From: a virus
Taxonomy: Duplodnaviria > Caudoviricetes
Direction: 5' to 3' (one strand)
IMG/VR virus record: IMGVR_UViG_3300017700_000931
Span: 32,001-96,000 of that record
Length of the DNA stretch: 64,000 nucleotides
Below are positions 996 through 34,688 of the stretch, one piece after another. Numbering within the stretch: the stretch's first letter is position 1; the number at the start of each line of letters is the position of its first letter. Made by a program: the position numbers and the translations under genes. The notes under the pieces were generated by a model. It saw only the letters and a program-made list of their open reading frames with translations. It made no database searches and was not told where the DNA came from.

Positions 996-997
996 AA

Positions 998-1596: not shown

Positions 1597-1653
1597 TTTA
1601 TTATTAAATATATCACAAAGATACTAATGTTATTTGAATTAGCAATGATTTTT
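1597..1653 (-). promoter_or_regulatory. tRNA-cluster promoter, copy 1 of a 57-bp identical repeat
   Basis: Identical to 26496-26552; contains TATCTTTG (Bacteroidota -7 box) at 1616-1623 and an upstream TTG. Confidence 0.85.
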
Positions 1654-1704
1654 ATAAATTATTTTTAAAATATTTTTTAATCGATTGATTTTGTGATATT
1701 TAAC

Positions 1705-2906: not shown

Positions 2907-2907
2907 T

Positions 2908-2937
2908 AAAAAAAGCCATACTTTTGGTATGGCTTTT
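2908..2937 (-). terminator. intrinsic terminator
   Basis: AAAAGCCATAC-loop-GTATGGCTTTT inverted repeat with U-run. Confidence 0.7.
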
Positions 2938-2959
2938 ACTTGTAAAAAATTTTTGAAAA

Positions 2960-3586: not shown

Positions 3587-3810
3587 TTTAATTTTTTTAA
3601 GGCTTTGTTATGGTTTTTATTTCTAGTACAAAGATACGAAGAAACCTAGATATAGGCAAGGGTTTTTCGAACTTTTTTTTATTTTTTTTAAAGTATTTCA
3701 GTACTGATTATCAGTACTTTATGTATTTTTAATGAAAATATTTTTAATATATTAAAATAGGTCGACATTAGTCCTAAATGTTATAGTGGTGATTGAGATA
3801 TTTATAACAT

Positions 3811-4551
3811 ATGAAGCTAGTGAAATTATATGAAAGTGTTATAAAAGAAGGTCAAGTTGAGTCTTGTATTTCACAATTTGGTATGGAATTATTTTCGCCG
3901 GAATTCGGTGGTGATGAACCTAACACCGAATTAGAAAATGATTATATTGAATTAATTCATAAATTCTCTGGCAAACCACAAGGTACTAGAATCGATACTA
4001 ATATGTATAATATGGCCAACAAATTAAAAACGTGTGTTTCATATTATCCTGATATTCTTCAATCGAGAGGTTACGCTTTTAGAGGTATTAAGATTTCTAT
4101 TGCTGACTTCTTAAAATCATTCCCAGAAATAAAAGAAAGAATTAGAATGGGGCAACCATTTCAAATGGTTTATAATGCTAAAACACCGATACAAAGTTGG
4201 GGTGATGATGAGGATTCAGCTAATGATGATTTTGGGTATCGTGGGACTAGTATTGCTTCAGTATTAGATAAATTTGATGCTGCTAGAAAATCTGGAACAC
4301 TAAATGAATTCATTCAACATATAATTCACCATAATTTGGATACTGAGATTCCAATCATGATTAAATACAGAATCCAAGCTGATGATTTTATTTTCAAAGG
4401 TAAGTATTTTAATTACCTATCCAATAATGATAATAACGAAATTCTAAGAATTGATAATCGCCCAATAGAAGTATTGGCTAAGGTTAGTCCGATGGAATTT
4501 TCAACAAAATTATTTGATTTATTACAAATACTTTCTAGTTCAAAGTATTAA
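3811..4551 (+). CDS. hypothetical protein, possibly virion-associated; weak ADP-ribosyltransferase-like motifs
   Basis: ATATTTATA at 3798; N-terminal LYE/IKE; AFRG..QSW..NEI spacing. Confidence 0.55.
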   Translation: MKLVKLYESVIKEGQVESCISQFGMELFSPEFGGDEPNTELENDYIELIHKFSGKPQGTRIDTNMYNMANKLKTCVSYYPDILQSRGYAFRGIKISIADFLKSFPEIKERIRMGQPFQMVYNAKTPIQSWGDDEDSANDDFGYRGTSIASVLDKFDAARKSGTLNEFIQHIIHHNLDTEIPIMIKYRIQADDFIFKGKYFNYLSNNDNNEILRIDNRPIEVLAKVSPMEFSTKLFDLLQILSSSKY

Positions 4552-4786
4552 CTTCTATTAGAATACCTAGAATTCCACCCATATCGGTGGCATGAAACAT
4601 TAGTTTCTCTCCAAAATGTTTATGCAACGATTCTTTGATTTTTGTACCATCACAATTTGGTTTTAATTGAAATTTTATTTCTTTATCAGTCACATTTTCA
4701 TCATCATCGAAAGTTATTTCGTCAATCCCATATTTACTTTTCAAGTAAGCAGCAATTTCTATATGCAATTCTTGTATCTCTGTCAT
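4535..4786 (-). CDS. hypothetical protein
   Basis: ATG at 4786; ATATTTAT motif upstream. Confidence 0.55.
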   Translation of the reverse strand: MTEIQELHIEIAAYLKSKYGIDEITFDDDENVTDKEIKFQLKPNCDGTKIKESLHKHFGEKLMFHATDMGGILGILIEVNTLN

Positions 4787-4844
4787 ATCAATAAAGTTAT
4801 ATATAAATATTGACAAACACAACCAAAAGAACTATAATTATCAA

Positions 4845-5156
4845 ATGGGAACAGTATACTTACTAAATGCTTGGGGGACCAATAAATACAAGATTGGGTT
4901 CACAAAAAGGGATATCAATTTAAGAATTAAACAATTACAAACTGGTTGCCCGGATGAAATTGTTTTAGCTAGAAAATATGAATGTGAAAATTATCAAAAA
5001 GTAGAAAAATGGCTCCATAAACAACATAGCTCCAAACGTGTTGAAGGTGAGTGGTTTTTACTGGAGGATGCTGATGTTTATAGTTTTATAAACGATTGTG
5101 ATAAGATTCATACCACAATAAAGTTATTAATCGAAGACAATCCTTTTTATAAATAA
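4845..5156 (+). CDS. GIY-YIG/T5orf172-family nuclease
   Basis: VYLL...YKIGFT...RIKQLQTG...GEWF pattern. Confidence 0.8.
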   Translation: MGTVYLLNAWGTNKYKIGFTKRDINLRIKQLQTGCPDEIVLARKYECENYQKVEKWLHKQHSSKRVEGEWFLLEDADVYSFINDCDKIHTTIKLLIEDNPFYK

Positions 5157-5183
5157 AAATGGGACCCACTGGGTCCCATTTTA

Positions 5184-6185
5184 TTATGTTAGAAATTCTT
5201 TATAAAAAAATTCAAACTTTTCATAAATTTTATCAGTGGTTTCATCCAAAAGAAATTTATCATATTCTTCTGAGGAACCAAAGTAATCTTTAAACGAAGT
5301 TAGAGCTCTACCCAATTCTTTACCCTTAATACCATAACGTCTCATGATAACATCACCACTAAACTTTGACTTAATGTAAAGTTTTTTACATTCCAAGTAT
5401 TCTAATTCACGCATTTTCTCAGTCATTCTGGCTTCTGGGAAAAATTTATTTGCCCTAGCTACTGAAATTGCTTTGTCTTCGAATTCATAAGACTTGTCCG
5501 AATAGTGTTCAGCAATGTATGTCAAAAATGACATGTATGATTTTCTTTTAATATTTCGCTCACGATTTATTTTATTCAAATTTTTCAATTCAAACATTTC
5601 GGCATCGAAATATTGATTTTTAATTACGTATTCGAATATATCTTCAAGTGTAGAAAAACCTTTTTGCCACTCTGAATAATCAAATCCTAAGAATTCAAAT
5701 ATCTTAGGATAATCCTTAGAAATCATTACTGAACCAATTTTTTGGTCTTTAAAGTAATGGTTATACCATAAACCTTCTTGACCATATTTTAATCCAAGCT
5801 TCTGAGCAATTCTACCAATAAAATTACCTAGGTCATTAAACGCCAAGTAATGATAATTGGAATCAAAGTCTGCTGCGGAACAAGTAATTAAATCAACTTG
5901 AATTTCTTTATAATCAAATGACCAAGCATTACCATTATGAAAAATTTCATTAGGCATGAATGTCTGGGTAATATATGAATGCATATTCCCAAAAACATTT
6001 GAATTATCATCCATAGAGATGATGATATCAATATCACCAAAACTTTCCTTTGTTGAATAAAATAAAGGTACTTCAACTCTTTTGAAAGTTTGTCTAAGAA
6101 TGTTAACTAGCTTATCTGAAGCCACATCAAATTCTTCTCTAGAATAACGTCTAGTATATGTTGACTTTAATGCTAATCCACCCAT
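5184..6185 (-). CDS. Pol-beta-superfamily nucleotidyltransferase-like protein
   Basis: KESFGDIDII motif and downstream QVDLI; GLKYGQEGL. Confidence 0.65.
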   Translation of the reverse strand: MGGLALKSTYTRRYSREEFDVASDKLVNILRQTFKRVEVPLFYSTKESFGDIDIIISMDDNSNVFGNMHSYITQTFMPNEIFHNGNAWSFDYKEIQVDLITCSAADFDSNYHYLAFNDLGNFIGRIAQKLGLKYGQEGLWYNHYFKDQKIGSVMISKDYPKIFEFLGFDYSEWQKGFSTLEDIFEYVIKNQYFDAEMFELKNLNKINRERNIKRKSYMSFLTYIAEHYSDKSYEFEDKAISVARANKFFPEARMTEKMRELEYLECKKLYIKSKFSGDVIMRRYGIKGKELGRALTSFKDYFGSSEEYDKFLLDETTDKIYEKFEFFYKEFLT

Positions 6186-6186
6186 T

Positions 6187-7755
6187 TTATTTTCTGTTAG
6201 TTTCCATATAACGGAATACATCCGCAACTTTTTGCATTACTGCTCGGTGTTCTTCATTACCACCTTTAGTAGAGAACAATTCTTTACCCAAAATTTGTAA
6301 TGCATCACTAACACTATCGTGTTGTTTGATTGCTCTACATTCAGCAAATTTAATTTGTTTTTTATACGAATCCGCAGCTGAAACAATATCTTCATTACTG
6401 ATTTGATTCCCTTGTCTGTGAATCATGTATGCTTTTGCTTTATCGATTACCTCAGAAGCGAAAGCCGGAACAATACCACACAATGAGTTAATTGCAGCAG
6501 TATGGTCACCTTCAACCATTAATGACTTACCTTCTTTATCAACAACCAATTTATCGATAAATTGTTTTGCTGTTTCTTCATCCAAAACACCAAAGTTAAT
6601 TAATGAACCAATACGTTTACCTCTTAAGAATGTTGGCTCAATTACTTCAATGTGATTTGTCGTAAAGATTGAGATGATTGGGAGATTTTTAGTGTCTCCG
6701 CCATCAAGAGTATTTACAATTTCTTGAATTTTTTCACCACGCTCTCCTCGAAGAACTTGGTCAATATCTTCAGTAAACAAAATAACTCCATTACCATTTC
6801 TGGCATAGTTTTCAGCAATTTTCAAAGCCTTAGCTGAATGTTTACATTCTTTAACATAAATGAAGGTCCAACCAAACTCTCTGGCAATTTTACCAAGCCA
6901 AAAAGCGGTTAAGGTTTTACCAGTACCATAGATACCTTCCATTAGTACTCCCAATTTTATATCAAGACCTTCTTTGCGGCATTTTTCAGTTTCCTTGATT
7001 CTGGCTAGAATCGGAATAAGACCATCAAGGATGTCTTTTGAAAATAAAATTTTATTTTCATCGATAGTTGATAAATCCATGAAACTTGGTTCATTAGCAT
7101 AGTCATCGTCATCAAACTCAAGTTCAATTGCTTGAGCTAAATACAATGCTTCTTTCGCTAATATCTCGTTAGTCATATCAATGACTTTTCTGATGTCTGG
7201 TTCGAATTTTTTTCTGATTCGAGCATGAACTGTTATAGTAGTATCCTCATAATCATAATCAAGGTCGATATAACACTCATCATCAAAACCCGGAAGTTGA
7301 ATTCGTCCCCACGGAACTTTTACTTCTTCTCCATTTGGTAATGAAACACTGATTAATTCAGGAATTTTATCACCAGACATACCACCAGTACTAGTTTGGT
7401 TAAAAACACCCAAAACCTTTTCAACTGCTTTTGAAATAGCATATGCTCCTTCATGTTGAAAACATTTTAATTCATAATGAATTTCAACTAGTTGTTTTGT
7501 TGCATGAATTTTATCATTCATGAACTTTAAAGCATATTCAAAACCTTTTTCTTGGGCTAGACCAACCATTTCGGTTAACTCTGCTTCATTCATTTCCGTT
7601 TGAGTTGGTTTGAACATGTCTGTATTGACAGTAGATTCCTCTGTTTCATTTTCTACAGATGTTTCAGAACCCAATTTTTTAATCGGATTTGATTTTTCAG
7701 AAATGCTAGTTTCACCAGCGTTTTTTTCTTTTGTAAGTTCGTTCGTGTTAGCCAT
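6187..7755 (-). CDS. AAA+ ATPase
   Basis: Walker A GIYGTGKT, Walker B-like LFTEDID, TTN sensor, RGKR finger. Confidence 0.85.
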   Translation of the reverse strand: MANTNELTKEKNAGETSISEKSNPIKKLGSETSVENETEESTVNTDMFKPTQTEMNEAELTEMVGLAQEKGFEYALKFMNDKIHATKQLVEIHYELKCFQHEGAYAISKAVEKVLGVFNQTSTGGMSGDKIPELISVSLPNGEEVKVPWGRIQLPGFDDECYIDLDYDYEDTTITVHARIRKKFEPDIRKVIDMTNEILAKEALYLAQAIELEFDDDDYANEPSFMDLSTIDENKILFSKDILDGLIPILARIKETEKCRKEGLDIKLGVLMEGIYGTGKTLTAFWLGKIAREFGWTFIYVKECKHSAKALKIAENYARNGNGVILFTEDIDQVLRGERGEKIQEIVNTLDGGDTKNLPIISIFTTNHIEVIEPTFLRGKRIGSLINFGVLDEETAKQFIDKLVVDKEGKSLMVEGDHTAAINSLCGIVPAFASEVIDKAKAYMIHRQGNQISNEDIVSAADSYKKQIKFAECRAIKQHDSVSDALQILGKELFSTKGGNEEHRAVMQKVADVFRYMETNRK

Positions 7756-8014
7756 TTTTTAGTTCTTGAGCTTGTTTGTATAAAAATTCCATTTGTTTTT
7801 TCGTGTCAGTTAAACAATCAATTCTAACTTTTTTATCAGGACACGTTCTGATATTAGAATCACCAAATTTATATCTAGTTATTGTTTTTTTCTTTAAAAA
7901 ATTATCAATCTGAGTAAGTGTTCCGGTTAAGCCTTTACAAGTGATAAGGATTTCACCATCTACTTTAGTAAAAGTGATTGGGTAACCACCAAAAGTTAAT
8001 TCTTGATTATCCAT
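7748..8014 (-). CDS. hypothetical protein
   Basis: ORF with TACATTTG box at 8019-8026. Confidence 0.6.
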   Translation of the reverse strand: MDNQELTFGGYPITFTKVDGEILITCKGLTGTLTQIDNFLKKKTITRYKFGDSNIRTCPDKKVRIDCLTDTKKQMEFLYKQAQELKNG

Positions 8015-8067
8015 AGTGCAAATGTATAAATAATATTTCGATAATCCAAATTATTTTCGAAAATAAT

Positions 8068-8673
8068 TTAAAATTTAATTAAACCACCATTAATTAAACC
8101 AATAATATATTGAGAGTGTTGCAGATTCATTTTTTTTGCTGTAGTGGCTCCGGCATCATTTTTTACTTCTGGTTTTCTATCTACTGCACTACCAATAGTC
8201 ATGTGCATACCAAAATGTGGTTTGCCTAATCCTAATTCGCTTCTTATTGCTTGTAGTTCACCCCTTTCATTATGAGGAATTATTAACCACCAATGAAGTC
8301 CGTTATCGGAAAATCGTGGCTTAATATCTAAAACAATTTTTATTTCTTTTTTGTGCCACTTAGCTTTAACCTTATCCCAATTACCATTCATATCACTAAC
8401 ATGGTCATTAATGAATGAAATATGTGTACCTCTAAGTGGTTTAGTCAATTCTAGTCCAAATCTTTTTTTTATGAACCAAGCATAATACTCAGTAGTATCA
8501 TCCTTAATAATAACCATAGCTAATCTTTTCCAAGATGATTGGGATTTGTGTTTGTTTGTTTTATCATCTGGGTCAAAATAAATTTTGCCTGTTAATGTTA
8601 TTGTATCCATATCCTTCATAATTTGGAGGGGCAATTGGTGGTTGAATGTTGTGTCTATTTTCTTCTTTTTCAA
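8068..8673 (-). CDS. 2H phosphoesterase-like protein
   Basis: Two HxS/T motifs: HISF and HMTI. Confidence 0.6.
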   Translation of the reverse strand: MKKKKIDTTFNHQLPLQIMKDMDTITLTGKIYFDPDDKTNKHKSQSSWKRLAMVIIKDDTTEYYAWFIKKRFGLELTKPLRGTHISFINDHVSDMNGNWDKVKAKWHKKEIKIVLDIKPRFSDNGLHWWLIIPHNERGELQAIRSELGLGKPHFGMHMTIGSAVDRKPEVKNDAGATTAKKMNLQHSQYIIGLINGGLIKF

Positions 8674-9241: not shown

Positions 9242-9988
9242 TTAACCTTTAGCCAAAGCAAAATTTTTCAAAAAATCTCGTAAAAAAACATTTTTCTCAC
9301 CACCCATTTTTATAACCCAGCTAGCATAATTTTTTTTATTATCTTCTTCCCAACGAATAATATCATCAGTAGAAATTACTTCTGGGTTAAATGGTGTTTC
9401 CACATAATCTTTATACAGTTTCTTATTGAAAACACGTTCATCAACAATAAATGAAATACCTGTTAACATAGAATTTAGGTCCGGCTCATAAAATGTCGAT
9501 ACCTTAACATTCGCTTCTTTTAATTTAGCTAAATGTTGTTGCATCGAACCAATATACATTATCTCTCTAAATCCTTGTCTAACTTTATGACCTTCATTAG
9601 AAGTACCGCCATTTAAAAGAATACTTGTTTTCCATTCTTTAGCCCATCGAACGTATTGTTCATCCATTTCATCTGGGTCAATAACATATTTCACCACAAA
9701 ATCAGTATTTGAGTGTTCATGTTGAATACCCATTTGAATCCCCAACAAATTATATGGGACCAATGAATACATTCGTAATTCTAAGTATTTTTCAGACTTC
9801 AAATGAAGCTTACCATAAGTAACCTTAACACCTTTCAGATTAACTTTCAATAATGAACGAAATGTTTCCTCGTTACATTCTTGAGTGTAGAACATTTCTT
9901 CATCATCGGGATGGTTTTCCAATCCAGAAACTCTTATTTCAGATTCTATCGCCCACTCATAGGGTGTTTTTCTAATTTGTTTGTCCAT
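9242..9988 (-). CDS. phage Pth2-like (peptidyl-tRNA hydrolase fold) protein
   Basis: RMYSLV..GIQMGIQHEH, W..KTSILLNGG, FYEPDLNSMLTGISF recalled as Pth2-like pattern. Confidence 0.55.
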   Translation of the reverse strand: MDKQIRKTPYEWAIESEIRVSGLENHPDDEEMFYTQECNEETFRSLLKVNLKGVKVTYGKLHLKSEKYLELRMYSLVPYNLLGIQMGIQHEHSNTDFVVKYVIDPDEMDEQYVRWAKEWKTSILLNGGTSNEGHKVRQGFREIMYIGSMQQHLAKLKEANVKVSTFYEPDLNSMLTGISFIVDERVFNKKLYKDYVETPFNPEVISTDDIIRWEEDNKKNYASWVIKMGGEKNVFLRDFLKNFALAKG

Positions 9989-10202
9989 TATCTGGTTTTT
10001 GTTTATCGAAATCATAATTCGGCTTTAAGGGTTTGTATCTAAACTCAGTATCAGTTGTTTCAGCTTTAACCTCTTTGGTGGTGCTCTTTAACATCTCAGG
10101 TCTATTCTCTTCAATCCAGACAATATAGCTTGGGTCATTTTCGGTAACCCAACTTAATGTTTTACCTTTATGTTTACCACTTCTGAATATTAGTTCACCC
10201 AT
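9972..10202 (-). CDS. small protein with FRSGKHKGK motif (DUF3820/ExoX C-terminal-like)
   Basis: GKHKGKTL...SYIVW. Confidence 0.55.
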   Translation of the reverse strand: MGELIFRSGKHKGKTLSWVTENDPSYIVWIEENRPEMLKSTTKEVKAETTDTEFRYKPLKPNYDFDKQKPDNGQTN

Positions 10203-10273
10203 TTGACCACAAATATAAATAAAAAAAGGGAGACTACCAAATAATCTCCCTTTTTTATTATAATTTTTTATTT

Positions 10274-10684
10274 TTATACGATAACACCCTCTATTTCATA
10301 TTCCACAACATCTATTGGTTTAGATGAAGCTTTTTTAGTGTAATATGATACATCATCAACATAAAAGGTGTAATCACCATACCAATCTTCATTTACAAAT
10401 GAAGAATAGATTAAATTGATTAAGATTTCATTATCAATAATATCCCCGGATTCATTGTAATAAACCCAATCATCTATATTGTTACCACTTCTATCATTTT
10501 TTCGCTTGGCTAAGTATGATTCATCACGACCTAATGATAACGAATATTTTGATTTAATTGTGATTATTGTTTCGTTATCTGAATTTGATAACACAAACAT
10601 TAGTGTGGTGATAAATGCACCAAATGCGAATAATAAAACCATATTATCTGAATATTTCTTTAAATAGTGTTGGATTGGATACAA
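10274..10684 (-). CDS. membrane-anchored hypothetical protein
   Basis: N-terminal hydrophobic segment. Confidence 0.5.
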   Translation of the reverse strand: MYPIQHYLKKYSDNMVLLFAFGAFITTLMFVLSNSDNETIITIKSKYSLSLGRDESYLAKRKNDRSGNNIDDWVYYNESGDIIDNEILINLIYSSFVNEDWYGDYTFYVDDVSYYTKKASSKPIDVVEYEIEGVIV

Positions 10685-10841
10685 TCCAATTATAAATCAA
10701 ACTTTGAAGGTTTGGTGGTAATGGGAATCCTTGCATATACACCACATCCATAACAATATGGAATTCTGTGTTACTTGGAAACTCTAGGCCGTGTTGTAAA
10801 CTTGCAGCCTTTTTTAATAAATGAATTTTATTTGCTATCAT
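10644..10841 (-). CDS. hypothetical protein
   Basis: ATG at 10841. Confidence 0.5.
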   Translation of the reverse strand: MIANKIHLLKKAASLQHGLEFPSNTEFHIVMDVVYMQGFPLPPNLQSLIYNWIVSNPTLFKEIFR

Positions 10842-10907
10842 AACTTTTTTGATAATGATAACTATAAATATCAACAAATAAAGGATAAAGACCAAAAAAG
10901 GGTTGGC

Positions 10908-11960
10908 TTATAAGCCAACCCCCTCATCAAGTTTTTGAAAAAACCACTTCCTAGCTTTATCTGCAACAGATTTTGTTATCTCTTTAACCTCAAATCCATT
11001 ACCGACAATAGTATCTAATTCTTCCTTCACAACGTCTCCACTAACCCAACTTAAATAAACACCAGTACTTTTTCTTGAAAATTCATGGTGATTTTCTTTT
11101 AAGTATGTGAATCCTTGAAGTAATCTTGATTCAGTTAAAAATGAATCGACTAATTCATTGATAGAATTCATTCTTTCAATATCCACTGGAATTTTTTCCT
11201 TGGTGCCAGATGATTTATGCTCATCACCTTTGGTTTTAAACCAATATCTAGATTGATACCAACCTTCAGTGGTACAAACCCAAACAATTCCCTCACCAAC
11301 ACCTTCTTTACCGAAAGCTTTACCAACCGGACATTCTTTTTCAACCATTTCTACCAATTTAGTCATCTCATCGGCAGCTAATTTTGGTTCATTAAAATCA
11401 ATGGTCATTGAATATGTTGGGAAGTCTAGGATGTTGTAAATTCGTTCTTCAGGACTTTTAACCAATGATAATTGTTCATCCTTCAACCAAATATTATCAA
11501 TTTTGATGGCAAAAATGACAAACATTTTATCTAGGCCATTAATAGCAACACCTTTTTGAATACTTTTACCACACCACTCACCATATAACCTTACTACTTC
11601 AGGTGTATAACCTAAATCATCCCCAAAAACCTTCATTATTTTTGAAAGTAGGGCATTATTATCAATAGTGTTAGCGAATGAAGAGAATCCAGCATTATCA
11701 TTCAATGGAGTAATAATACTTTCTTTAGACTGTGTTTGCATTTCATATTCAAAAGCAAGGGGATTCCATACCCAAACAATTCCAGCATTGGTTCCATGTA
11801 ATTTAACCGAACCCCTGAACGTTAAAACAGGTAACGATGCAGATTCATCATACATTGGCTCACCTTGTTCATCATTTCCGATATACCTAGCTCTATGTGC
11901 TACTTGATAAATAACATTTCTGAAGAGCTCAATGCTAGGGAATTTATAAACTTTTTCCAT
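10908..11960 (-). CDS. RNA ligase, Rnl2-like
   Basis: Motif I KLHGTN, YGEWCG, GEGIVW, FKTK. Confidence 0.85.
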   Translation of the reverse strand: MEKVYKFPSIELFRNVIYQVAHRARYIGNDEQGEPMYDESASLPVLTFRGSVKLHGTNAGIVWVWNPLAFEYEMQTQSKESIITPLNDNAGFSSFANTIDNNALLSKIMKVFGDDLGYTPEVVRLYGEWCGKSIQKGVAINGLDKMFVIFAIKIDNIWLKDEQLSLVKSPEERIYNILDFPTYSMTIDFNEPKLAADEMTKLVEMVEKECPVGKAFGKEGVGEGIVWVCTTEGWYQSRYWFKTKGDEHKSSGTKEKIPVDIERMNSINELVDSFLTESRLLQGFTYLKENHHEFSRKSTGVYLSWVSGDVVKEELDTIVGNGFEVKEITKSVADKARKWFFQKLDEGVGL

Positions 11961-12496
11961 TACTCATTATCTAATTTAATTTCTTTTATTATCGAACCAG
12001 TTGGTAAATAAAGGTGATATTTTTGATAACCTGCATTACCAGATATTGGCAACCACCATGAATCATTTAATTCTTTTACAATGTAAACTTCAAGTCTTGG
12101 TGTATCAAGCGAATCCACTTCATAGATTGTTGTCAGATTCGCACTAATAGAACGTCTAACGATTCCACCACTATCATCTTTACGATAATAATTATAAACC
12201 TGTTTCTCACCTATGTGGCCGGAACCCAAAATGAAATTGCCATCAGTGTTATTTCCATCATTAATCGAAACTAATTCATGAACCACTTTTTCAGTGTATG
12301 GCATATCCTTCATGAAGAGTTGACCACCTAGACCCCATATCATAGGGGTAAGTAAACCAGTAATAAAAATAGCCATCACAATACCACAAAAATAATTAAT
12401 TATTTTTTTAATTATAGTCTGCCCGTATGATAAATCCCTAACGATTGCGATTGAACAGATTATACTAATAACGAAAATTATACAAAATATTATCAT
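11960..12496 (-). CDS. membrane protein
   Basis: Two N-terminal TM segments; ATGA overlap with ligase stop. Confidence 0.65.
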   Translation of the reverse strand: MIIFCIIFVISIICSIAIVRDLSYGQTIIKKIINYFCGIVMAIFITGLLTPMIWGLGGQLFMKDMPYTEKVVHELVSINDGNNTDGNFILGSGHIGEKQVYNYYRKDDSGGIVRRSISANLTTIYEVDSLDTPRLEVYIVKELNDSWWLPISGNAGYQKYHLYLPTGSIIKEIKLDNE

Positions 12497-13887
12497 ACTA
12501 ATGTTTTTACCATGTGTTCGATTTCCTTAGCTGATTCTAATGAATCACAAGTGTTTTTATCCGTCCTTAATTCCACTACGGATGGATGTAAAGTAGACCA
12601 ATTACCATCTGAATCTTGGGATAATCCGCAACATCTTATTTCTACAACGCTACCCATTAATTTTTCTTGATTTTCGGTAACGTACTTCATCATTTCTTCG
12701 TTCATACCTGATGGATTTGTTTTTAACAAACCACAAGATGACTCAGTTCTAATTGTTGAAATAACATTTTCATTCTTGGTGCCCTTAGTTCCATAATTAA
12801 AACCAACGATTTTTAAATCAATAGACATTTCAAGTTTCATTTTTACTTGCCAGTTGGGTTTGCCATCTTTCCAAGCTCCATCATGCGCCTTAAGAATAGT
12901 TCCTTCGAGACCTTTAGCTAATGCTGTTTGAAAATGGGCCATCGCATCTGAATAAGATTCACATAGAACATTTTCTACCACACATACCTTGTTGTTTTCA
13001 TTTTGATTACCAAATAAAACACCCTCTAAATTTTTAAGTCTTTCATGATATGGTACTGATGTTTTTTTATTAAAATACTCATCAGTTGTAATCATATCCC
13101 AAACTGTAAACCGGATACCATTTATTGCATCAATATAAGGACCATGTTTTTTATCGAACGCACTTATTTTTTTAAGTGTTTCTACTTCACCTCTTTCTTC
13201 ACGCTTACCTTCGATATCTACGATTGATGCAACCATACCATTCGCAGTATATCTGTCGTATCCATCAATAGTTAATTCACCATTCAAAACAACGTCATTC
13301 AATAATTCCAATTCTTTTAAAAATGGTGCATTACCAACGAATGTTGTTTCACTTTGTCTTGAAACCAATTCAACTTCACCACCACGAATAATCGCATTAC
13401 AATAACGACCATCCATTTTTATTTGTGAAAAGGCTTTTTTACTTTTGTTGAAAATATCTTTAGCCAATTTTTCTGAAAATGATTTAGCTCCCATGTATGG
13501 TGTTTCTTCAATCAAATTAGGGATGACTTTATTTATCCCAGAGTCCATACCAATTTTCAAGTCTTTTTGAATGATACGTTCAATAACATAAGCATCATCT
13601 GATAATACTGATGAAAGAATATCTCTTAAATATTCAATAGCATCATTACCAGTGACTTCTCGATTGATTAATTTATCAAGTTTTTTCAATGCTTCATCAA
13701 GAGTTAAAGATGAATTACCATCCTTTGTGTATTCTGGAATTTGCTTAATATAAAACTTAATGCGTTTTGAATCGGCCAGATAAAGAACTCGTTTTAATAA
13801 TTCATTATCCTTGTATTTACCAAGAATCGCTAATTTAGCAAGCTTACCATTATCAGCCGCAATTTCATCTAAAATTTGTTTAATCAT
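12493..13887 (-). CDS. ATP-dependent DNA ligase
   Basis: KMDGRY, LNGEL, EGTILK, KMK motifs; C-terminal OB fold. Confidence 0.9.
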   Translation of the reverse strand: MIKQILDEIAADNGKLAKLAILGKYKDNELLKRVLYLADSKRIKFYIKQIPEYTKDGNSSLTLDEALKKLDKLINREVTGNDAIEYLRDILSSVLSDDAYVIERIIQKDLKIGMDSGINKVIPNLIEETPYMGAKSFSEKLAKDIFNKSKKAFSQIKMDGRYCNAIIRGGEVELVSRQSETTFVGNAPFLKELELLNDVVLNGELTIDGYDRYTANGMVASIVDIEGKREERGEVETLKKISAFDKKHGPYIDAINGIRFTVWDMITTDEYFNKKTSVPYHERLKNLEGVLFGNQNENNKVCVVENVLCESYSDAMAHFQTALAKGLEGTILKAHDGAWKDGKPNWQVKMKLEMSIDLKIVGFNYGTKGTKNENVISTIRTESSCGLLKTNPSGMNEEMMKYVTENQEKLMGSVVEIRCCGLSQDSDGNWSTLHPSVVELRTDKNTCDSLESAKEIEHMVKTLV

Positions 13888-17638: not shown

Positions 17639-18034
17639 TTATGCAAACATTTTGAATTTAATTCCTAAATCATTTAGAGATTCACCAACAAGGGAATTAT
17701 ATCTACCAAAAGACCCAGACATAATTTCAGCAAAATGTGTCCATTTAACAACATGTGGCTCATCTGTTTGTATAGTGCCAGCCCAATCCTTAACCAAGTA
17801 TGTATAACCCATATAACCATCTTTATGAATGGCAAAAACCAATTCCATAGTCTTAGTATCAATACTTAATCCGGTTTCTTCATAAACTTCTCTACTCAAA
17901 GCATTTTCCATCGAATCATCCTCTGGGTCCACTTTGCCACCAGCAAGGCCGAAATCATTGTGGTCAGTTTTTCTAGAAACTGCTAAAACTTCACCCTTAT
18001 CATTTAAGATGATTGCTTGTACGGTATATTTCAT
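17639..18034 (-). CDS. Nudix hydrolase
   Basis: GGKVDPEDDSMENALSREVYEETG Nudix box. Confidence 0.9.
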   Translation of the reverse strand: MKYTVQAIILNDKGEVLAVSRKTDHNDFGLAGGKVDPEDDSMENALSREVYEETGLSIDTKTMELVFAIHKDGYMGYTYLVKDWAGTIQTDEPHVVKWTHFAEIMSGSFGRYNSLVGESLNDLGIKFKMFA

Positions 18035-19029
18035 TCTGCTAAATTTGAATTACTGAATTGGTTCATACCTGTTACTTCCATGATTAGAACTTCTTTTAAC
18101 CAATCAGGAAGATTTAATTCATAGGTTTCGGATGGAAGCTCAATTTCCGCAATTACAAGTCTTAAACCATGACCAACAATGTCAGACCTAGTTCCCATCA
18201 AATCAACTTCCCATTTTAGTCCACCATCAATGTTTTTAATGAATCTACTTTTTCGAAGAGAACGTTTTTCTTTCACTGATAATGTAACATAGTCCTCCCT
18301 AGTTATTTCAATCTCATCTTCTTCGTTAGACATATGAGATATTCTATTTTTAGTTGTTTGAGTATATTCAATATCTGTAGGTAAATCTCTTTGAGTTTTT
18401 CTTATTCTTTCAACCACTGGAGCACCCTTTTCCGATAAATAAATTTGATGAATTGATAATTCATCATCCCACTTAACATTTGGTAATCGTTTAAGTAAAA
18501 ATCTCCTTTCGATTTCAATATTTATTGGTTTTTTCGGTTCCGGCTGGCTTTTCAATTCAGTCCTTAATTCCATCCACATATTACCTAATATGTTAGCTCC
18601 TTCCCAAGTACCATCTGGTAGCTTCATTGCACCCCAAAAAAGATTACTGTTTTTTGCTCCACGAGCAGTAACATCTTCGTAAATTGGTATCTCTCCAGAA
18701 CCAAGTAATATTTCTTTAAGTTCAGAATGTTGTTCAATTTTAAGCTTAATACAAAGCCTCATATTGGCTAAATCTTCTTCAGAAGTTGGGACTACTGACA
18801 TCCAATCACGATTTGCTTTTGCAACTAACTTAGCAGTAAAACCATTACTTGCTAATCTAATTTCTTCACGTATTGGGGAATTCTCAGGGAATCGCATTGC
18901 TTGAAATAATGCTTCAGTACTTTTCCACTCTATTCCATCATGAATGATTCTAAAATTTGACATATTACCCATCCAACCGAATGGTAAATTTGATTTTGTA
19001 AAGGCGATTTCTGTTATCTGATTATTCAT
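18031..19029 (-). CDS. NADAR (YbiA-like)-CYTH fusion
   Basis: N: LSNM/STEALFQAM..FWG..GANILG; C: EIERRFLL, EVDL, IAEIEL. Confidence 0.8.
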   Translation of the reverse strand: MNNQITEIAFTKSNLPFGWMGNMSNFRIIHDGIEWKSTEALFQAMRFPENSPIREEIRLASNGFTAKLVAKANRDWMSVVPTSEEDLANMRLCIKLKIEQHSELKEILLGSGEIPIYEDVTARGAKNSNLFWGAMKLPDGTWEGANILGNMWMELRTELKSQPEPKKPINIEIERRFLLKRLPNVKWDDELSIHQIYLSEKGAPVVERIRKTQRDLPTDIEYTQTTKNRISHMSNEEDEIEITREDYVTLSVKEKRSLRKSRFIKNIDGGLKWEVDLMGTRSDIVGHGLRLVIAEIELPSETYELNLPDWLKEVLIMEVTGMNQFSNSNLAE

Positions 19030-19340
19030 GATTCAATTATTTTTCGATATTTGGCAGTCATTACATTTAATAAATGAGTTTCAACACTCAAAGGAAATTT
19101 TTTATTCTTAACTAATCTTTTTGATTCAGTAATAAATAAATTACCAAAATATTTTAAATGAACACTTGATTTCATTAATCTCAAAGCATTCAATTTTTGG
19201 TCATACTTACAGAATATTGTATTAACTTCATGTATGTGTGCCGGATATTCTTTATTCAATATTTCAGCCAATTTTATTCCAGCTACCATATCGGTACCAC
19301 ACCAAGTAGTATGGTCAGCTATGTAAATTCTGTTTTTCAT
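19026..19340 (-). CDS. hypothetical protein
   Basis: ORF in operon. Confidence 0.55.
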   Translation of the reverse strand: MKNRIYIADHTTWCGTDMVAGIKLAEILNKEYPAHIHEVNTIFCKYDQKLNALRLMKSSVHLKYFGNLFITESKRLVKNKKFPLSVETHLLNVMTAKYRKIIES

Positions 19341-19343
19341 ATT

Positions 19344-19790
19344 TTATTTTGCTAAGCTCCTTACCGCAACTAACAATTCAGTCATTGAATGTACTTGTCT
19401 GACACCATACCTTGTAGCTACAATATCTACATTACCTTTTCTCCAAAAACCCTCTGGACAATACAATATCATCTTACCGCTGGCAGCATAAAGACCAAGC
19501 TCTAATAATGAAATAGGACTTTTTGTGTTCTCATCAAAATACATGAGAATAATATCAGATTTATCAAGATGGTCCAATTCCCATTCTACTTGTTCTCTGA
19601 ATTGTGGGTTATGAATAGATTGTTCCCAAGAACTATCCCAATTGTCTCTACGTGGATTAAAAATTATAACATTATAATCCTTTAGTTCTTCTTCAATTTT
19701 AGATTGCCAGTCTTCAGCAACACCCATTTCAATTGACCCAGCTAAAAATATGGATATTTTTCTAAACGGTGGTTTAATTACTTCTGCCAT
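19344..19790 (-). CDS. nucleoside 2-deoxyribosyltransferase-like protein
   Basis: IFLAGSI..WQ..FNPRR..QVEWE..SPISLLELG. Confidence 0.8.
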   Translation of the reverse strand: MAEVIKPPFRKISIFLAGSIEMGVAEDWQSKIEEELKDYNVIIFNPRRDNWDSSWEQSIHNPQFREQVEWELDHLDKSDIILMYFDENTKSPISLLELGLYAASGKMILYCPEGFWRKGNVDIVATRYGVRQVHSMTELLVAVRSLAK

Positions 19791-27225: not shown

Positions 27226-28377
27226 TTATTTGAGTAATTCTTTGAAATTATCAATTTCCTTAGCATTTATGAATCGACCCATCGCTGGGCCATCTTCTAT
27301 TCCAGCATCAGTAGCATCTTTACCAGTAACACTTAAATTAAACTCTAAAAATGCTGCTAACATATTATCATCAAAAGAAATTAGCTTACCAAATTTCTTA
27401 ATTGAATCAGAATTAACGCCGGAACGCACTTGAAGCTTTTTATAGCCAACAATTGAATTAATTGCAAAATCCTTCAATGAAATTAAAAATGTAATAGCTT
27501 TGACTTCATTAGCTGAATATGTCAATTTGTTTAAATCTTTAGCCAATTGTGTTGGGTCATTATTTACTAATAACCAAGCAATTAATATGGCTGGGTCTCT
27601 TTCTTCAATAAAATCTTTGTTAACATCCAACCCAGTGAAAATCCAATCAAACAAATTGTATTTATTAATCAATTGTAAAAAATGAATTACCGATTTACTA
27701 GTTTTTAATCCCTTCAAGAATTCATCTCTGATTCTTTCTGGAGAAATATCTTTAAGACTTGCATCCTTTTGTAATGCTTTATCAACCGCTGGGTCTAATT
27801 CGGAACCAAACCTTCCCGCAAATCTAATTGCTCTCAGAATTCTAAGTCTATCTTCACCAAATCTATCTTCAGCAGAACCAACTGTTTTGACAACACCATT
27901 TTTTAAATCATCAATACCACCAACAAGGTCAACGACTTCGCCAGTATCGATATCATAAAATAATGCGTTAATTGTAAGGTCACGTCTTTTTACATCTGTT
28001 TCAATATTGGTGAATTCAACCTCATCCGGTCTTCTACCTGAACCAATATCTTTTCTGAATGTCGCTATTTCATATTCACCTGAATCGGAAAATACATTAA
28101 TAACACCAAATTGTTTTCCAGTTGGGAGTGTTTTGAGTCCAGCTTCTTTCATCATGGATTCAACCTTGTCTGGAACTGCATCAGTAGCTAAGTCCCAATC
28201 TTTTGGTATTTTACCAAGTAACGCATCTCTAACAGCACCACCAACCACAAATAATTTGTGCCCATTAGCAACAAATATGTTTTTTATTGCAATAATGTCT
28301 TGTGGAACCGGAATGTTCATTTTTACTCGACTTTCCATAATAAGACTTCTGATTTTATTTTTAATAAATTCTTTCAC
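27226..28377 (-). CDS. cca: CCA-adding tRNA nucleotidyltransferase
   Basis: VGGAVRDALLG, DWDLAT, RRDLTINAL, EDRLRILRAIRF; likely GTG start at 28377. Confidence 0.9.
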   Translation of the reverse strand: MKEFIKNKIRSLIMESRVKMNIPVPQDIIAIKNIFVANGHKLFVVGGAVRDALLGKIPKDWDLATDAVPDKVESMMKEAGLKTLPTGKQFGVINVFSDSGEYEIATFRKDIGSGRRPDEVEFTNIETDVKRRDLTINALFYDIDTGEVVDLVGGIDDLKNGVVKTVGSAEDRFGEDRLRILRAIRFAGRFGSELDPAVDKALQKDASLKDISPERIRDEFLKGLKTSKSVIHFLQLINKYNLFDWIFTGLDVNKDFIEERDPAILIAWLLVNNDPTQLAKDLNKLTYSANEVKAITFLISLKDFAINSIVGYKKLQVRSGVNSDSIKKFGKLISFDDNMLAAFLEFNLSVTGKDATDAGIEDGPAMGRFINAKEIDNFKELLK

Positions 28378-28412
28378 TTGCAAATATAAGTATTAATTTT
28401 TGGATGACCTAA

Positions 28413-30516: not shown

Positions 30517-30549
30517 AAAAAAACCCACCAATTAATTGGTGGGTTTTAA
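30517..30549 (-). terminator. intrinsic terminator after nadR-like gene
   Basis: AAAACCCACCA-ATTAAT-TGGTGGGTTTTTT. Confidence 0.75.
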
Positions 30550-30559: not shown

Positions 30560-31690
30560 TTATCTTTCAAAGGATATTTTCTCCCAAGGTTTTTCTCTTA
30601 ATTCTCTTTGTTTTTCTTTAATGATGCTGATAGCATTCTGTAGACGTTGGTCACCTTTGCCCATCACAATCTTAAAATTAGCGTTATTAGCTTCTAATTG
30701 AGCCTTAATACGTAGAAAATGAAGAAGTCTATCTTTCTGTTCTGAGAAATCTCTTGTTCCATCATCTTTCCAAGCGATATCTGGGTAAGTTAATAAATAA
30801 AGGTCAATTTTACCAACATTTTGGTAAAATCCATTACCAAAAATTTGTAGTTTGATTAATCCATCGATTTTATCGGAATAATAGGTAACATCATCAGATT
30901 TATCAGAATTGTACCAATCATTCATATCGGTATACATTGATAAAAATGTTTTAGTAACAATTGCCTCAGTATCTACAAATATATATCGGCAATCCTTACG
31001 GTCCCTTTCACATATTCGCTCCGCTCTTAACATTGATTGATAATGTTCGCCAGCAATATGATAAAAATCTTCCGGTTTTAGGTCCTTGGTTTTAACTTTA
31101 TTTTCTGTATACCAACGTCCATATTCATCAACAACCATACCATCATATATTTCACCTAATTGGGTGGTCAGTGTTGATTTACCAGTAGATTCAGGACCAA
31201 TGATTGCAATTTTCATCCTGAAATAAGATTTTACTTCATCTGGAATATAGGCCCAATTATCAAAAGGATTTCTTCTAATGTCTGTCCCGGATATTGGAAA
31301 GGCTACTCGGTTCTTATCCACTAATACTGGCTCAACATTAAGACATTTAGCGAAAGCAAATACATAATCTTCCGAGGCGAATACTGCATCCAATTCTGGA
31401 ATATATGAATAAACTGAATCGTGCCAAATTTGCCAAAAATTTTCATTATCCTCTGGATATTGTGGGTTCTCATCTGGGCAATGGATAACGTTGATATTTT
31501 TTTCATTAATAAAAATATCCTTGGCCATCTTAAACCGGATTTCACCATCAATTGGCTCACAAAGACGTGAGCAAACCATAACATGAACTACTTCACATTG
31601 TTTAGCAGCCTCTCTTATCATATGGACATGCCCATTATGTATGGGCATAAATTTACCTAAGCAAAGTCCGTTTTTAAATCTTTTTTCCAT
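30560..31690 (-). CDS. nadR: NadR-like NMN adenylyltransferase / ribosylnicotinamide kinase
   Basis: GKFMPIHNGH (HxGH), ISGTDIR, GPESTGKST Walker A, DTEAIVT, W..DGTR. Confidence 0.85.
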   Translation of the reverse strand: MEKRFKNGLCLGKFMPIHNGHVHMIREAAKQCEVVHVMVCSRLCEPIDGEIRFKMAKDIFINEKNINVIHCPDENPQYPEDNENFWQIWHDSVYSYIPELDAVFASEDYVFAFAKCLNVEPVLVDKNRVAFPISGTDIRRNPFDNWAYIPDEVKSYFRMKIAIIGPESTGKSTLTTQLGEIYDGMVVDEYGRWYTENKVKTKDLKPEDFYHIAGEHYQSMLRAERICERDRKDCRYIFVDTEAIVTKTFLSMYTDMNDWYNSDKSDDVTYYSDKIDGLIKLQIFGNGFYQNVGKIDLYLLTYPDIAWKDDGTRDFSEQKDRLLHFLRIKAQLEANNANFKIVMGKGDQRLQNAISIIKEKQRELREKPWEKISFER

Positions 31691-32220
31691 AAAAAATATG
31701 CTTTAATCGACATTAAAAATAATACCACTTCTAGTATGGCAATAATATATAACCCTTGGTATAGCATCATACCACAAACTAATGTATTAACCACCATCCA
31801 TAATATCCACCCCTCTAGGTATTTATTACCCATATAATGGGTTGCCAATATAGCTATACCACTACTCATAGCATCTATATAGGGGGAGGGAGAATCAGTA
31901 TAGGTATCCATTATCCTACCCATAGGGATAGAAATAAGGGTGAAAATGATGATATGTGTTAAAAAATTAACATTTTGTGTTATTTTAAGCTCTAAATACT
32001 CTTCATGGGCACCTTTTCCCCATTTATACCATCCAAAAATGTTTGCAATGAAGAAAATTATCTGCAAAATTGCTTGTAAATAAATTTTTTCATTAAAATA
32101 AATGACGAAAAAGAGAATTATTGCAACAATTCCGAAAAACCAACACCAAATATTTTGTTTTGCTGTCAAATAAACACAAATCAATGTGAAAATCATTGCA
32201 GATATCTCCAAAAATTTCAT
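31657..32220 (-). CDS. pnuC: PnuC nicotinamide riboside transporter
   Basis: Multi-TM; AKQNIWCW, GWYKW, DA..S, KYLEGWILW. Confidence 0.85.
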   Translation of the reverse strand: MKFLEISAMIFTLICVYLTAKQNIWCWFFGIVAIILFFVIYFNEKIYLQAILQIIFFIANIFGWYKWGKGAHEEYLELKITQNVNFLTHIIIFTLISIPMGRIMDTYTDSPSPYIDAMSSGIAILATHYMGNKYLEGWILWMVVNTLVCGMMLYQGLYIIAILEVVLFLMSIKAYFLWKKDLKTDFA

Positions 32221-34193
32221 TATAAAGACATTTTGATTGTGATATAACCACTTAATGGTGCATTTACATAGAAATACCTAAGATTATCTACAACATACCC
32301 ATTAGTATAGTACCGTACACTGGTAATATTGTTAACCCTACCACTAATAGTATAGTCTTTATAGGTATACCCTATACTACCCCCATATATGATAAAAGAG
32401 GGGGTGGTGTAATTATTACTAAAATCTAAATACGAACTACTATGGTATTTGGCTGTAAAGGCTAAATTAAATGGTCCATACTTATAATTCAATTCAGCAT
32501 TGCTAACTACCGGAGGTGTATACAATGGTTGGAATTTCATTCCATTATCGTTTATTCGATTATAAGATAGGTTCGTATTATTATTCAGGGTCAATCTACC
32601 ATTTTCATTATCCAATAAAATAATTGATGTCTCGATTTCAATTCCACTTCTAAATGATTTATCAACATTCATCATTAATGGTAAACCGTTAGAGCCTAAA
32701 GCACCTATCAGGGTTATTTCATTTTTGAAATCCATGAAGTATAGATTACTTTTAAATTTGAATCTTTCACTCAAATAACTAAAACCAACCTCATAATCCG
32801 TAACCATTTCTGGATTTACTGCTGAATATGAAATTAGATTATCTTCGCCCATGAACATATCATTACGAGTAGGTTCTCGGTGAGATACTCCAACTGAAGC
32901 ATATGCTCTAAAATGTCTACAATAATTAAATACTACACCAGCTTTAGGATTAAAGAATAACCAATTTAAGTCCGGCATGACTACATCACCATTATATTCA
33001 AATGTAACATATCTTAATTGGGCATCCCCGAACAATGTGTACTTTCCGATGTCATAACCACCTTTCATGAATCCACTCAATTCATTCTTAAAACCTTTAT
33101 TAGTGTATAACCTATTTTCAACGTGAGGTAAAAGAGCCATACCATGTTCTCTATTGTACATATTACCATGGATTCCAATATTAGCATTTAATTTATCACC
33201 AGAATATTTGTAGTTGGACATCAGGCCATAAAAATTAGAGGCTAATTGGTAATTCAAAACATCGGTACCAGCACCTAATGGATTTAAATCCAAATCCCAC
33301 TCACCATCAAGACGATTATAATAAATTGTTGTATTAATTAATGATTTATTACCCAATCTTTGAGTATGTTGTACTTGAATAAAATTTTGAATGAAATTAT
33401 CATCCTCAACTGGTGTGTTATAATTAGTTCTTGGGTCTGCATTAATATCCAATTCGGAAACTGCATTCCAAGACATTTGATTTAATGACCGACCAGTGAA
33501 TCCTGAAAATTTGATTACACTATTTTTTAAATGGTAACCACCGCTCATGAAGAACGAATAACCCTTACTTCCAGAATTATATTTGTAACCATCAGTATCA
33601 AATGTAGAAAAATTAGTATAGATTGCTAACCCTTTATCATTAATCCCAGTGCTGTGCGAAACATTAAATCGTTTTGTATTAAAAGAGCCATAACCTAATT
33701 CTACTTCGGTGAATTCTTTCACACCACTTGGACTCTCAAAATTGATTGAACCAGCATAAGAGGAAACACCATTCGTAGATGTTCCAACACCACGTTGAAT
33801 TTGCATTGATTGAATATTATTTGAAAATCCGGGGTAGTTAGAGAAATAAACACCTTGGTCTTCTGGTTCATTAAGGGGAACACCATTAAGTGTCATATTA
33901 ATTCTAGTTTGGTCAATCCCTCTAATTCTAAAATAAGTATAACCTTGTGGATGACCACCATCCGTTGATGATGTGATTGAAGGGGTTTTATCCAAAACTT
34001 GTGAAACTTCTTCACCTTGATATCCGGTTTTAATATCATCTCGACCAAGTGTTGTTTCAGTGACTGGAGTTTTGTTATCAGCTCTAACGCCAGTAACACT
34101 TACACCCTCAAGTGTAATCATCTTAGTTGTATCTTCCTGAGCATGAACAAAAACAAGACTCAACAGAGTAATACAAAATAATAATTGTTTCAT
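32220..34193 (-). CDS. TonB-dependent receptor
   Basis: Signal peptide; plug YFRIRGID..RINMTLNGVPLND, GVGTS..GSINF; beta-barrel ending in hydrophobic C-terminus; TATCTTTG at 34212-34219. Confidence 0.9.
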   Translation of the reverse strand: MKQLLFCITLLSLVFVHAQEDTTKMITLEGVSVTGVRADNKTPVTETTLGRDDIKTGYQGEEVSQVLDKTPSITSSTDGGHPQGYTYFRIRGIDQTRINMTLNGVPLNEPEDQGVYFSNYPGFSNNIQSMQIQRGVGTSTNGVSSYAGSINFESPSGVKEFTEVELGYGSFNTKRFNVSHSTGINDKGLAIYTNFSTFDTDGYKYNSGSKGYSFFMSGGYHLKNSVIKFSGFTGRSLNQMSWNAVSELDINADPRTNYNTPVEDDNFIQNFIQVQHTQRLGNKSLINTTIYYNRLDGEWDLDLNPLGAGTDVLNYQLASNFYGLMSNYKYSGDKLNANIGIHGNMYNREHGMALLPHVENRLYTNKGFKNELSGFMKGGYDIGKYTLFGDAQLRYVTFEYNGDVVMPDLNWLFFNPKAGVVFNYCRHFRAYASVGVSHREPTRNDMFMGEDNLISYSAVNPEMVTDYEVGFSYLSERFKFKSNLYFMDFKNEITLIGALGSNGLPLMMNVDKSFRSGIEIETSIILLDNENGRLTLNNNTNLSYNRINDNGMKFQPLYTPPVVSNAELNYKYGPFNLAFTAKYHSSSYLDFSNNYTTPSFIIYGGSIGYTYKDYTISGRVNNITSVRYYTNGYVVDNLRYFYVNAPLSGYITIKMSL

Positions 34194-34251
34194 AATGGTT
34201 TATTTAGTTGACAAAGATAATAAATTTTTTTTGATTGACCAAATTTAATGA

Positions 34252-34281
34252 AAAAAAAATGGAACCCTAGGGTTCCATTTG
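34252..34281 (-). terminator. intrinsic terminator
   Basis: AAATGGAACC-CTAG-GGTTCCATTTTTTT. Confidence 0.75.
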
Positions 34282-34283: not shown

Positions 34284-34688
34284 TTATTTCTTAGGTTCTA
34301 AACCAAGAAGGTGTATTACTATTTCACCAATTGTTTTTCCATCATTAAGGTCTTTATAAACCTTATCCATTCTTATTCGCATTTCTTTGAAATTAGGAAT
34401 AGATGTTGTTTTAACTTCTGATGAAAATAATTTATCAGATAAAACCTTTTTAGCATTATTCCCATGGTGTTCAACATAGTGATTGATATTACCTGAGAAT
34501 ACTGTTGTATCTTTACCATTAGATACAATACTAATAAAATAATCTTCACCATTTACATTATAGGTGAAAACCTTTTGAAAGTAATTGTTGTCAGTGATAA
34601 ATAAATGCTTAGCTGTTTGTTTAAGATAAGCAATAATATTTGATTTAATTTGTACCTTTTTTTCTTGTGCGTTTTCAATTGTTTCCAT
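34284..34688 (-). CDS. hypothetical protein
   Basis: 134-aa ORF. Confidence 0.65.
   Translation of the reverse strand: METIENAQEKKVQIKSNIIAYLKQTAKHLFITDNNYFQKVFTYNVNGEDYFISIVSNGKDTTVFSGNINHYVEHHGNNAKKVLSDKLFSSEVKTTSIPNFKEMRIRMDKVYKDLNDGKTIGEIVIHLLGLEPKK

Follow-up and report, generated by a model that had tools for sequence, protein, structure and literature searches.

The 64,000-nucleotide stretch of virus DNA analysed here (positions 32,001 to 96,000 of the IMG/VR record IMGVR_UViG_3300017700_000931; the window) was found to carry, on the minus strand at 30560-34193, three overlapping genes that encode, in the order of transcription, a TonB-dependent outer-membrane receptor, a PnuC-type inner-membrane facilitator and a NadR-like enzyme. 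This is probably a host-derived operon with which a huge phage of Bacteroidota would import and activate a precursor of nicotinamide adenine dinucleotide (NAD), and the best reading of the substrate from the encoded proteins is nicotinamide riboside (NR), not thiamine. A preliminary description of the window had proposed uptake of NR and its conversion to nicotinamide mononucleotide (NMN) and NAD+. As a mechanism this is still the best reading, given the protein families, the gene coupling and the lack of a thiamine pyrophosphate (TPP) riboswitch. The novelty then claimed for an import-based phage NAD route was overstated, as a PnuC with a NadR devoid of the helix-turn-helix (HTH) domain has already been published and tested as NARP3, which in phage TrudiRoth consists of the PnuC-like Bas30_87 and the HTH-less NadR Bas30_86 (Yan et al., Sci Adv, August 2026, PMC13464706). 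The outer-membrane receptor is the only part of the operon that goes beyond the described phage NAD pathways. What the analysis below establishes is that the genes are intact, coupled, conserved and under selection, together with their motifs, folds and origin.

Operon structure and transcription signals

The stop codon of the receptor gene and the start codon of pnuC have base 32220 in common, and the overlap of pnuC with nadR is 34 nt long. A promoter of the Bacteroidota type, TTTG-N20-TATCTTTG, was read from the sequence at 34212-34243 (minus strand), 18 nt 5' of the receptor ATG; the end coordinate originally given for the operon, 34219, is the first base of the -7 box of this promoter. 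The same motif lies 5' of the receptor gene in five of the nine other phage loci examined. A hairpin search disclosed an intrinsic terminator with a 12-bp stem and a T run after nadR (30520-30547, minus strand), while the hairpin terminator of the gene upstream (34257-34280, minus strand) forms the 5' boundary of the operon. The layout suggested at first, with one promoter and one terminator serving three coupled genes, is thus upheld by the overlapping junctions, the promoter and the hairpin.

The outer-membrane receptor

The receptor (657 aa; 32220-34193, minus strand) matched the Pfam families Plug (E 1e-12) at residues 40-148 and TonB_dep_Rec_b-barrel (E 2e-21) at residues 229-623. Its N-terminus is a Sec-type signal peptide, MKQLLFCITLLSLVFVHA/QED, followed by the TonB-box-like segment ITLEGVSVTG. 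The AlphaFold (AF2) model has a pLDDT of 75, the barrel being confident and the plug poorly modelled, and Foldseek aligned it over its full length to PqqU, FecA, YncD, FyuA and BtuB (TM 0.77-0.80). The protein combines the features of a classical TonB-dependent transporter, namely the signal peptide, the TonB-box-like strand, the plug and the 22-strand barrel. No PHROG family was found for it.

A SusC-like transporter, with about 1000 aa, an N-terminal extension and an adjacent gene for a SusD-like lipoprotein, was ruled out on the length of 657 aa and the lack of a SusD-like neighbour. Downstream the receptor gene is followed by pnuC, upstream it borders on an unrelated 134-aa gene, and neither a second receptor-like gene nor a large open reading frame (ORF) occupies the SusD position.

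It was also considered that the receptor might serve a separate function unconnected with NAD, such as SusC-like carbohydrate uptake, surface remodelling or superinfection exclusion. This would agree with the annotation of the homologue in Mar_Mega_1 and LR745206 as SusC, for carbohydrate uptake (Michniewski et al. 2021, PMC9723777), and with the Lak phages, whose homologue of 27% identity has no pnuC or nadR within 5 kb. Nonetheless such a role is very unlikely, as the full-length matches are to transporters of small molecules (PqqU, FecA, YncD and BtuB), the receptor stop overlaps the pnuC start, no second receptor-like or large ORF is found where SusD would be expected, and the receptor tree matches those of pnuC and nadR. 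Conservation is also stronger for the receptor than for either of the other two genes of the operon. The earlier interpretation in print, that the megaphage receptor imports sugars as a SusC, finds no support in the predicted features described here, and these correct it.

PnuC, the NadR-like enzyme and the substrate

The PnuC-type facilitator (187 aa; 31657-32220, minus strand) matched PF04973 (E 2e-42) and TIGR01528 (83 bits, cut-off 42), was assigned to phrog_1880 and could be aligned with 4QTN, an NR transporter of solved structure (E 8e-5). It keeps the ligand-binding motif WxxW(x)3N in the form WILWMVVN. The last residue of this motif (WxxW(x)3D/N) is N in the window, and D in most NadR-linked bacterial copies and in other phages. 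A substrate call from the Pnu motif was rejected, because the D/N position fails to separate NR transporters from those of thiamine.

The NadR-like protein (376 aa; 30560-31690, minus strand) contains CTP_transf_like and AAA_28 domains and is predicted to be bifunctional, with NMN adenylyltransferase (NMNAT) and ribosylnicotinamide kinase (RNK) activities. It has no HTH (DNA-binding) domain, and the NMNAT motif begins at residue 12. GKFxPxHxGH, ISGTxIR, the Walker A motif (P-loop) GPESTGKS, the Walker B motif DTE and the DDGTR lid are invariant in 17 phage and bacterial relatives. The scores against the NCBIfam models are 208.6 bits for TIGR01526 (E 1e-61; cut-off 341) and 147.6 bits for NF005988 (cut-off 201). 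Matches in the Protein Data Bank (PDB) were 9x6f, 8x7f and 1lw7 at E about 1e-30, the best being 9x6f, a 357-aa NMN adenylyltransferase (E 8e-31). The AF2 model has a pLDDT of 89.5 and superimposes on full-length NadR structures, including NR- and NAD-bound ones, with TM 0.69-0.75. In this model two lineage-specific insertions are predicted to form helices that would leave the core undisturbed. From its motifs and predicted fold the protein is placed as a divergent member of the NadR family, and the original statement that the partner of PnuC is NadR-like is borne out by the intact catalytic domains, the motifs and the fold.

The structure 9x6f was taken to be Bas30_86, because the residue numbers given for NARP3 fit the 9x6f sequence at an offset of 6. 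As only nine of the 16 residues highlighted for Bas30_86 are identical in the NadR-like protein (hand-mapped alignment, numbering offset +6), the canonical motifs were relied on instead.

Upstream of the operon, no Rfam match was obtained at E<=10 for the TPP, NAD+-I or NAD+-II riboswitches, and none was detected in 12 bacterial loci with the same three genes (the triad) either; the first impression that no TPP riboswitch is present was correct. This has a bearing on a further reading, by which the receptor would work with the Pnu protein in the uptake of thiamine or some other B vitamin, like the Bacteroides OMthi-pnuT-tnr3 operon, where a TonB-dependent receptor and PnuT serve thiamine (bioRxiv 867226; mechanism of PnuT, PMC5749112). 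Pnu transporters for thiamine and riboflavin are homologous to PnuC and hard to distinguish by sequence, and the D/N position does not help. Thiamine uptake is however unlikely because no TPP or NAD riboswitch was matched; besides, the trapping enzyme is a NadR and not a thiamine pyrophosphokinase, its gene overlaps pnuC by 34 nt and has co-evolved with it, and NAMPT, macro-domain and ADP-ribosylglycohydrolase (ARH) genes flank the bacterial orthologues. We regard import of thiamine or a related vitamin as highly improbable. NR is preferred over thiamine because the coupled enzyme is NadR-like with intact catalytic domains and the TPP riboswitch is absent. At the outer membrane the ligand would be NR, possibly NMN or NAD+.

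Distribution, origin and selection

The triad was found in at least 15 other huge-phage contigs, among them the published huge phages of 634 kb, 642 kb and 735 kb, the last with looser spacing between the genes, as well as a contig of 368 kb and several from metagenomes. Twelve of the 14 IMG/VR contigs that carry the receptor contain the whole triad, and in the INPHARED phage collection the receptor is limited to this megaphage group, while NadR-like genes occur in 801 phage records. The distant receptor homologue of the Lak megaphages lies at 5001-7043 of the Lak-A1 locus, and NadR-like matches are present elsewhere in Lak genomes.

In a scan of prokaryotes with one genome per species, the receptor was found in Bacteroidota, and in 65 of 79 chromosomal loci it is followed by PnuC and NadR in the same order and with similar overlaps (Chitinophaga, Mucilaginibacter, Niastella, Flavobacterium, Zobellia, Prevotella, Dysgonomonas and other genera). 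With this recurrence, and that in many phage contigs, the gene order is far beyond chance. Seven bacterial loci have NadR directly after the receptor with no PnuC gene between, and there the inner-membrane step must presumably be encoded elsewhere or done differently. The phage receptor is 38-44% identical to the chromosomal receptors of Bacteroidota. In 14 bacterial loci a NAMPT gene is directly 5' of the receptor gene, as in Mucilaginibacter, and in the bacterial subgroup nearest the phages the cluster gains a macro-domain protein, two ARH and a nucleoside-deoxyribosyltransferase-like gene. With NAMPT, macro-domain and ARH genes as neighbours of the bacterial orthologues, the receptor family is tied to NAD metabolism by an independent context. 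Flavobacterium-type chromosomes display the arrangement in full, as an eight-gene NAD/ADP-ribose island (deoxyribosyltransferase-like, NAMPT, Macro, two ARH, receptor, PnuC and NadR), which occupies 406-8553 of one such locus. No paper was found on either the bacterial receptor-pnuC-nadR operon or the eight-gene island, and the function of the bacterial operon is likewise a predicted one.

The trees of the three genes (LG+G4, quick search, no rooted outgroup, with support given only by the SH-like approximate likelihood ratio test, SH-aLRT) are congruent, and each has a split with 100% SH-aLRT that unites the phages with one bacterial subgroup. The bacterial subgroup, to which a 1.5-Mb Flavobacterium contig belongs, is characterised by a 190-aa PnuC; the phage copies are on longer branches than the bacterial ones. 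Phylogeny of PnuC had been put forward as a check; the PnuC tree agrees with those of the receptor and NadR in joining the phages to that subgroup, and the Pnu motif does not separate the substrates. Because the three trees agree, the operon appears to have moved as one unit between Bacteroidota and huge phages. We infer that it is host-derived and was captured whole from Bacteroidota, the direction and the number of transfers being part of that inference. The receptor of the 735-kb phage branches apart from the other phage receptors and may represent a separate capture.

Comparison with a relative of 94% nucleotide identity gave dN/dS values of 0.06 for the receptor, 0.09 for the NadR-like gene and 0.24 for pnuC. 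Judged from this range (0.06-0.24), all three genes are maintained by purifying selection in the phages. Non-functional cargo was rejected on the same values.

The phage genome and its other NAD and ADP-ribose genes

The window is part of a single IMG/VR record of 362,532 bp with direct terminal repeats and a completeness of 100%, which has LR745206 and LR756502, two published huge phages, among its relatives. Genes for tail sheath, tail fibre, DNA polymerase and ribonucleotide reductase (RNR) are present elsewhere in this genome, and a search of the phage with Terminase_6C gave no match; phage identity was accepted because of the tail sheath, tail fibre and polymerase genes, the terminal repeats and the relatives. 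The 362-kb genome is that of a complete huge tailed phage. Nearly all genes of the window are on a single strand, and it includes 31 tRNA genes and one tmRNA.

The promoter motif TTTG-N19-21-TANNTTTG occurs at 13 sites in the window, against 2.7 +/- 1.5 expected, and none of 100 shuffles reached 13. Bacteroidota-type promoters (TTTG-N19-21-TAnnTTTG) are thus about 5-fold enriched and lie mostly 5' of minus-strand genes, eight of the 13 sites being 8019, 10210, 17129, 21355, 35729, 40356, 48905 and 51130. This set gives a means of approaching the phylum of the host and of identifying the genes that its polymerase transcribes. Together with the closest homologues, the promoters suggest a Bacteroidota host.

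At about 354,528-357,178 of the phage record, on the minus strand, a NAMPT-like gene (559 aa; NAMPT_N and NAPRTase) adjoins an NMNAT/Nudix gene (322 aa). The pair resembles NadV/NatV of KVP40 or NARP2, so that two NAD+ salvage routes are predicted in this phage. Beside the pair are genes for a truncated FtsH-like M41 peptidase and a dCMP deaminase. A second cluster of NAD/ADP-ribose type is located in the window at 17639-19790 (minus strand) and consists of a Nudix gene (17639-18034), a NADAR-domain protein (18031-19029), a 104-aa protein of no assigned function and a Nuc_deoxyri_tr2 protein (19344-19790), all read from that strand. The last is 56% identical to the product of the first gene of the bacterial NAMPT-macro-ARH-receptor-pnuC-nadR island. 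SIR2, NAD-dependent ligase, 5'-nucleotidase (NadN-like) and Macro were not found in the phage, and no NAMPT, macro-domain or ARH gene adjoins the phage operon.

As for the flanks of the operon, the 134-aa gene upstream (34284-34688) is unrelated to it and has no assigned function; neither PADLOC nor Pfam at loose thresholds returned anything credible for the flanking 134-aa, 86-aa and 692-aa genes. In a relative whose receptor is 71% identical, the place of the 134-aa gene, directly upstream of the receptor gene, is held by a 74-aa gene of the Acb2/Tad1 hairpin family (E 1e-12; 1433-1657, plus strand). On a related 25.8-kb phage-like contig a SIR2-family gene (12469-13209, minus strand) lies about 3 kb downstream of the triad. 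Last, the window has, downstream of the operon, an intact gene of the CCA-adding/poly(A) polymerase family (27226-28383, minus strand; 385 aa), and in the 94%-identical relative (9632-11928) the same gene is split into parts of 128 aa and 295 aa by a homing endonuclease gene of the I-HmuI/NUMOD type.

Predicted function

The substrate at each membrane, the dependence on TonB, the timing of expression and the counter-defence purpose are what we infer from these data, and the following scheme is proposed. Host RNA polymerase most likely transcribes the operon from the host-type promoter. The receptor would be exported by the Sec pathway and inserted in the host outer membrane, and since no TonB_C match was found in the phage, which would lack a TonB of its own, the host TonB-ExbBD system is proposed as its source of energy. 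A scarce extracellular NAD precursor, NR or possibly NMN or NAD+, would be captured and delivered to the periplasm; from there NR would pass the inner membrane by diffusion through PnuC and, once trapped as NMN by the kinase domain of NadR, would be converted to NAD+ by the adenylyltransferase domain. The most likely use is to sustain NAD+ while a long infection lasts, particularly once NAD+-depleting defences are triggered, and the operon would act together with the second route, NAMPT and NMNAT/Nudix. By analogy with NARP3, which by experiment imports NR, rebuilds NAD+ and rescues the phage from Sir2-HerA and DSR1 (PMC13464706), the phage triad would be expected to rescue from NAD+ depletion.

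The same molecular mechanism could serve a different purpose, that of general metabolic support, the triad being an auxiliary metabolic operon which raises NAD+ for a long and costly replication of 362 kb. This is a serious alternative, in our estimate possible rather than probable, and the two purposes are compatible. The operon is a plain copy of a housekeeping salvage operon of the host and is driven by a host-type promoter, no recognisable defence or anti-defence gene is next to it in the window, and jumbo phages, in which NAD synthesis genes are widely carried along with NAD-using enzymes (PMC11662467), provide a ready precedent. Against it, the two-gene version that has been tested, NARP3, is a counter-defence system, a gene of the Acb2/Tad1 family adjoins the operon of the relative, and no NAD-dependent ligase was found in the phage; the second salvage route and the Nudix-NADAR cluster suggest a pressure on NAD and ADP-ribose specifically. 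Jointly, the second route, this cluster and the Acb2/Tad1 gene of the relative favour a role against NAD+-depleting defence.

Several points weigh against the assignment as an NAD-precursor import operon. The NadR-like protein falls below both NCBIfam equivalog cut-offs, shares little more than half of the residues highlighted in Bas30_86 and, in the lineage of the window, has its two insertions in the kinase domain. Since NR is a small molecule, it is not evident why a TonB-dependent receptor would be required; what the receptor really binds could be NMN, NAD+ or another compound. An outer-membrane protein made during infection would also need timely assembly. The host is placed to phylum by promoters and homologues, and neither a NAD-dependent ligase nor a SIR2, which would mark a specific need for NAD+, was found in the phage.

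A wider proposal, which in our judgement could equally well hold or fail, is that the receptor represents a new substrate class of TonB-dependent transporters, for the NAD precursors NR, NMN and NAD+, widespread in Bacteroidota and yet undescribed. Huge phages would have captured the whole pathway from the outside to the cytosol, and the phage-encoded gate in the outer membrane would scavenge precursors and so outlast NAD+-depleting immunity. If true, this would be the first phage counter-defence to reach the cell surface. If the receptor indeed feeds PnuC and NadR, phage rebuilding of NAD+ would include a phage-made outer-membrane transporter, beyond cytosolic enzymes and an inner-membrane channel; pathways of the NARP3 type would reach well past the phages of Enterobacteriaceae, into the largest phages known; and a large family of Bacteroidota TonB-dependent receptors would gain a testable function in vitamin B3 scavenging.

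Comparison with known systems

A module of PnuC and NadR had been foreseen in the paper on NARP1 and NARP2 before NARP3 was published, and pnuC-nadR clusters were noted in gut jumbo phages (PMC11662467). The papers on NARP3, on NARP1/2 and on jumbo phages (PMC13464706, PMC11662467) make no mention of a TonB-dependent receptor, and no outer-membrane transporter of the receptor's type for NR, NMN or NAD was found in the literature searched.

NadV/NatV of KVP40 and NARP2 (NAMPT and NMNAT/Nudix) are also phage systems of NAD+ salvage, and a similar pair is present in this phage. That route starts from intracellular nicotinamide and phosphoribosyl pyrophosphate (PRPP) and has no import step, unlike the triad. 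With OMthi-pnuT-tnr3 of Bacteroides the triad shares its plan, a single operon that combines a TonB-dependent receptor with a Pnu facilitator and a kinase for trapping; in contrast to that system, which is defined by a TPP riboswitch and a thiamine pyrophosphokinase partner, the phage operon has no riboswitch and its enzyme is a NadR. The closest arrangement is the chromosomal operon of Bacteroidota, with the same gene order and overlapping junctions, and one subgroup with the 190-aa PnuC is sister to the phages in all trees; the phage version differs in the NadR insertions, the longer branches and the lack of adjacent NAMPT, macro-domain and ARH genes.

As in NARP3, the gene of a PnuC-type transporter is coupled in one operon (here by the 34-nt overlap) to that of a NadR which has the NMNAT and RNK domains and lacks the N-terminal HTH. 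Both lie in a phage genome, as attested by the IMG/VR record, the tail and polymerase genes and the kinship with huge phages, and the predicted chemistry, from NR import through NMN to NAD+, is the same. The triad departs from the two-gene definition of NARP3 by its translationally coupled, promoter-proximal third gene, that of the TonB-dependent receptor. Its origin also appears to be independent, as its NadR is about 28% identical to NadR of enterobacterial phages and the operon derives from Bacteroidota. NARP3 was found largely in phages of Enterobacteriaceae (PMC13464706), whereas the present operon occurs in huge phages of Bacteroidota. Functionally it would amount to NARP3 extended by a step at the outer membrane, having been put together independently out of an operon of Bacteroidota.

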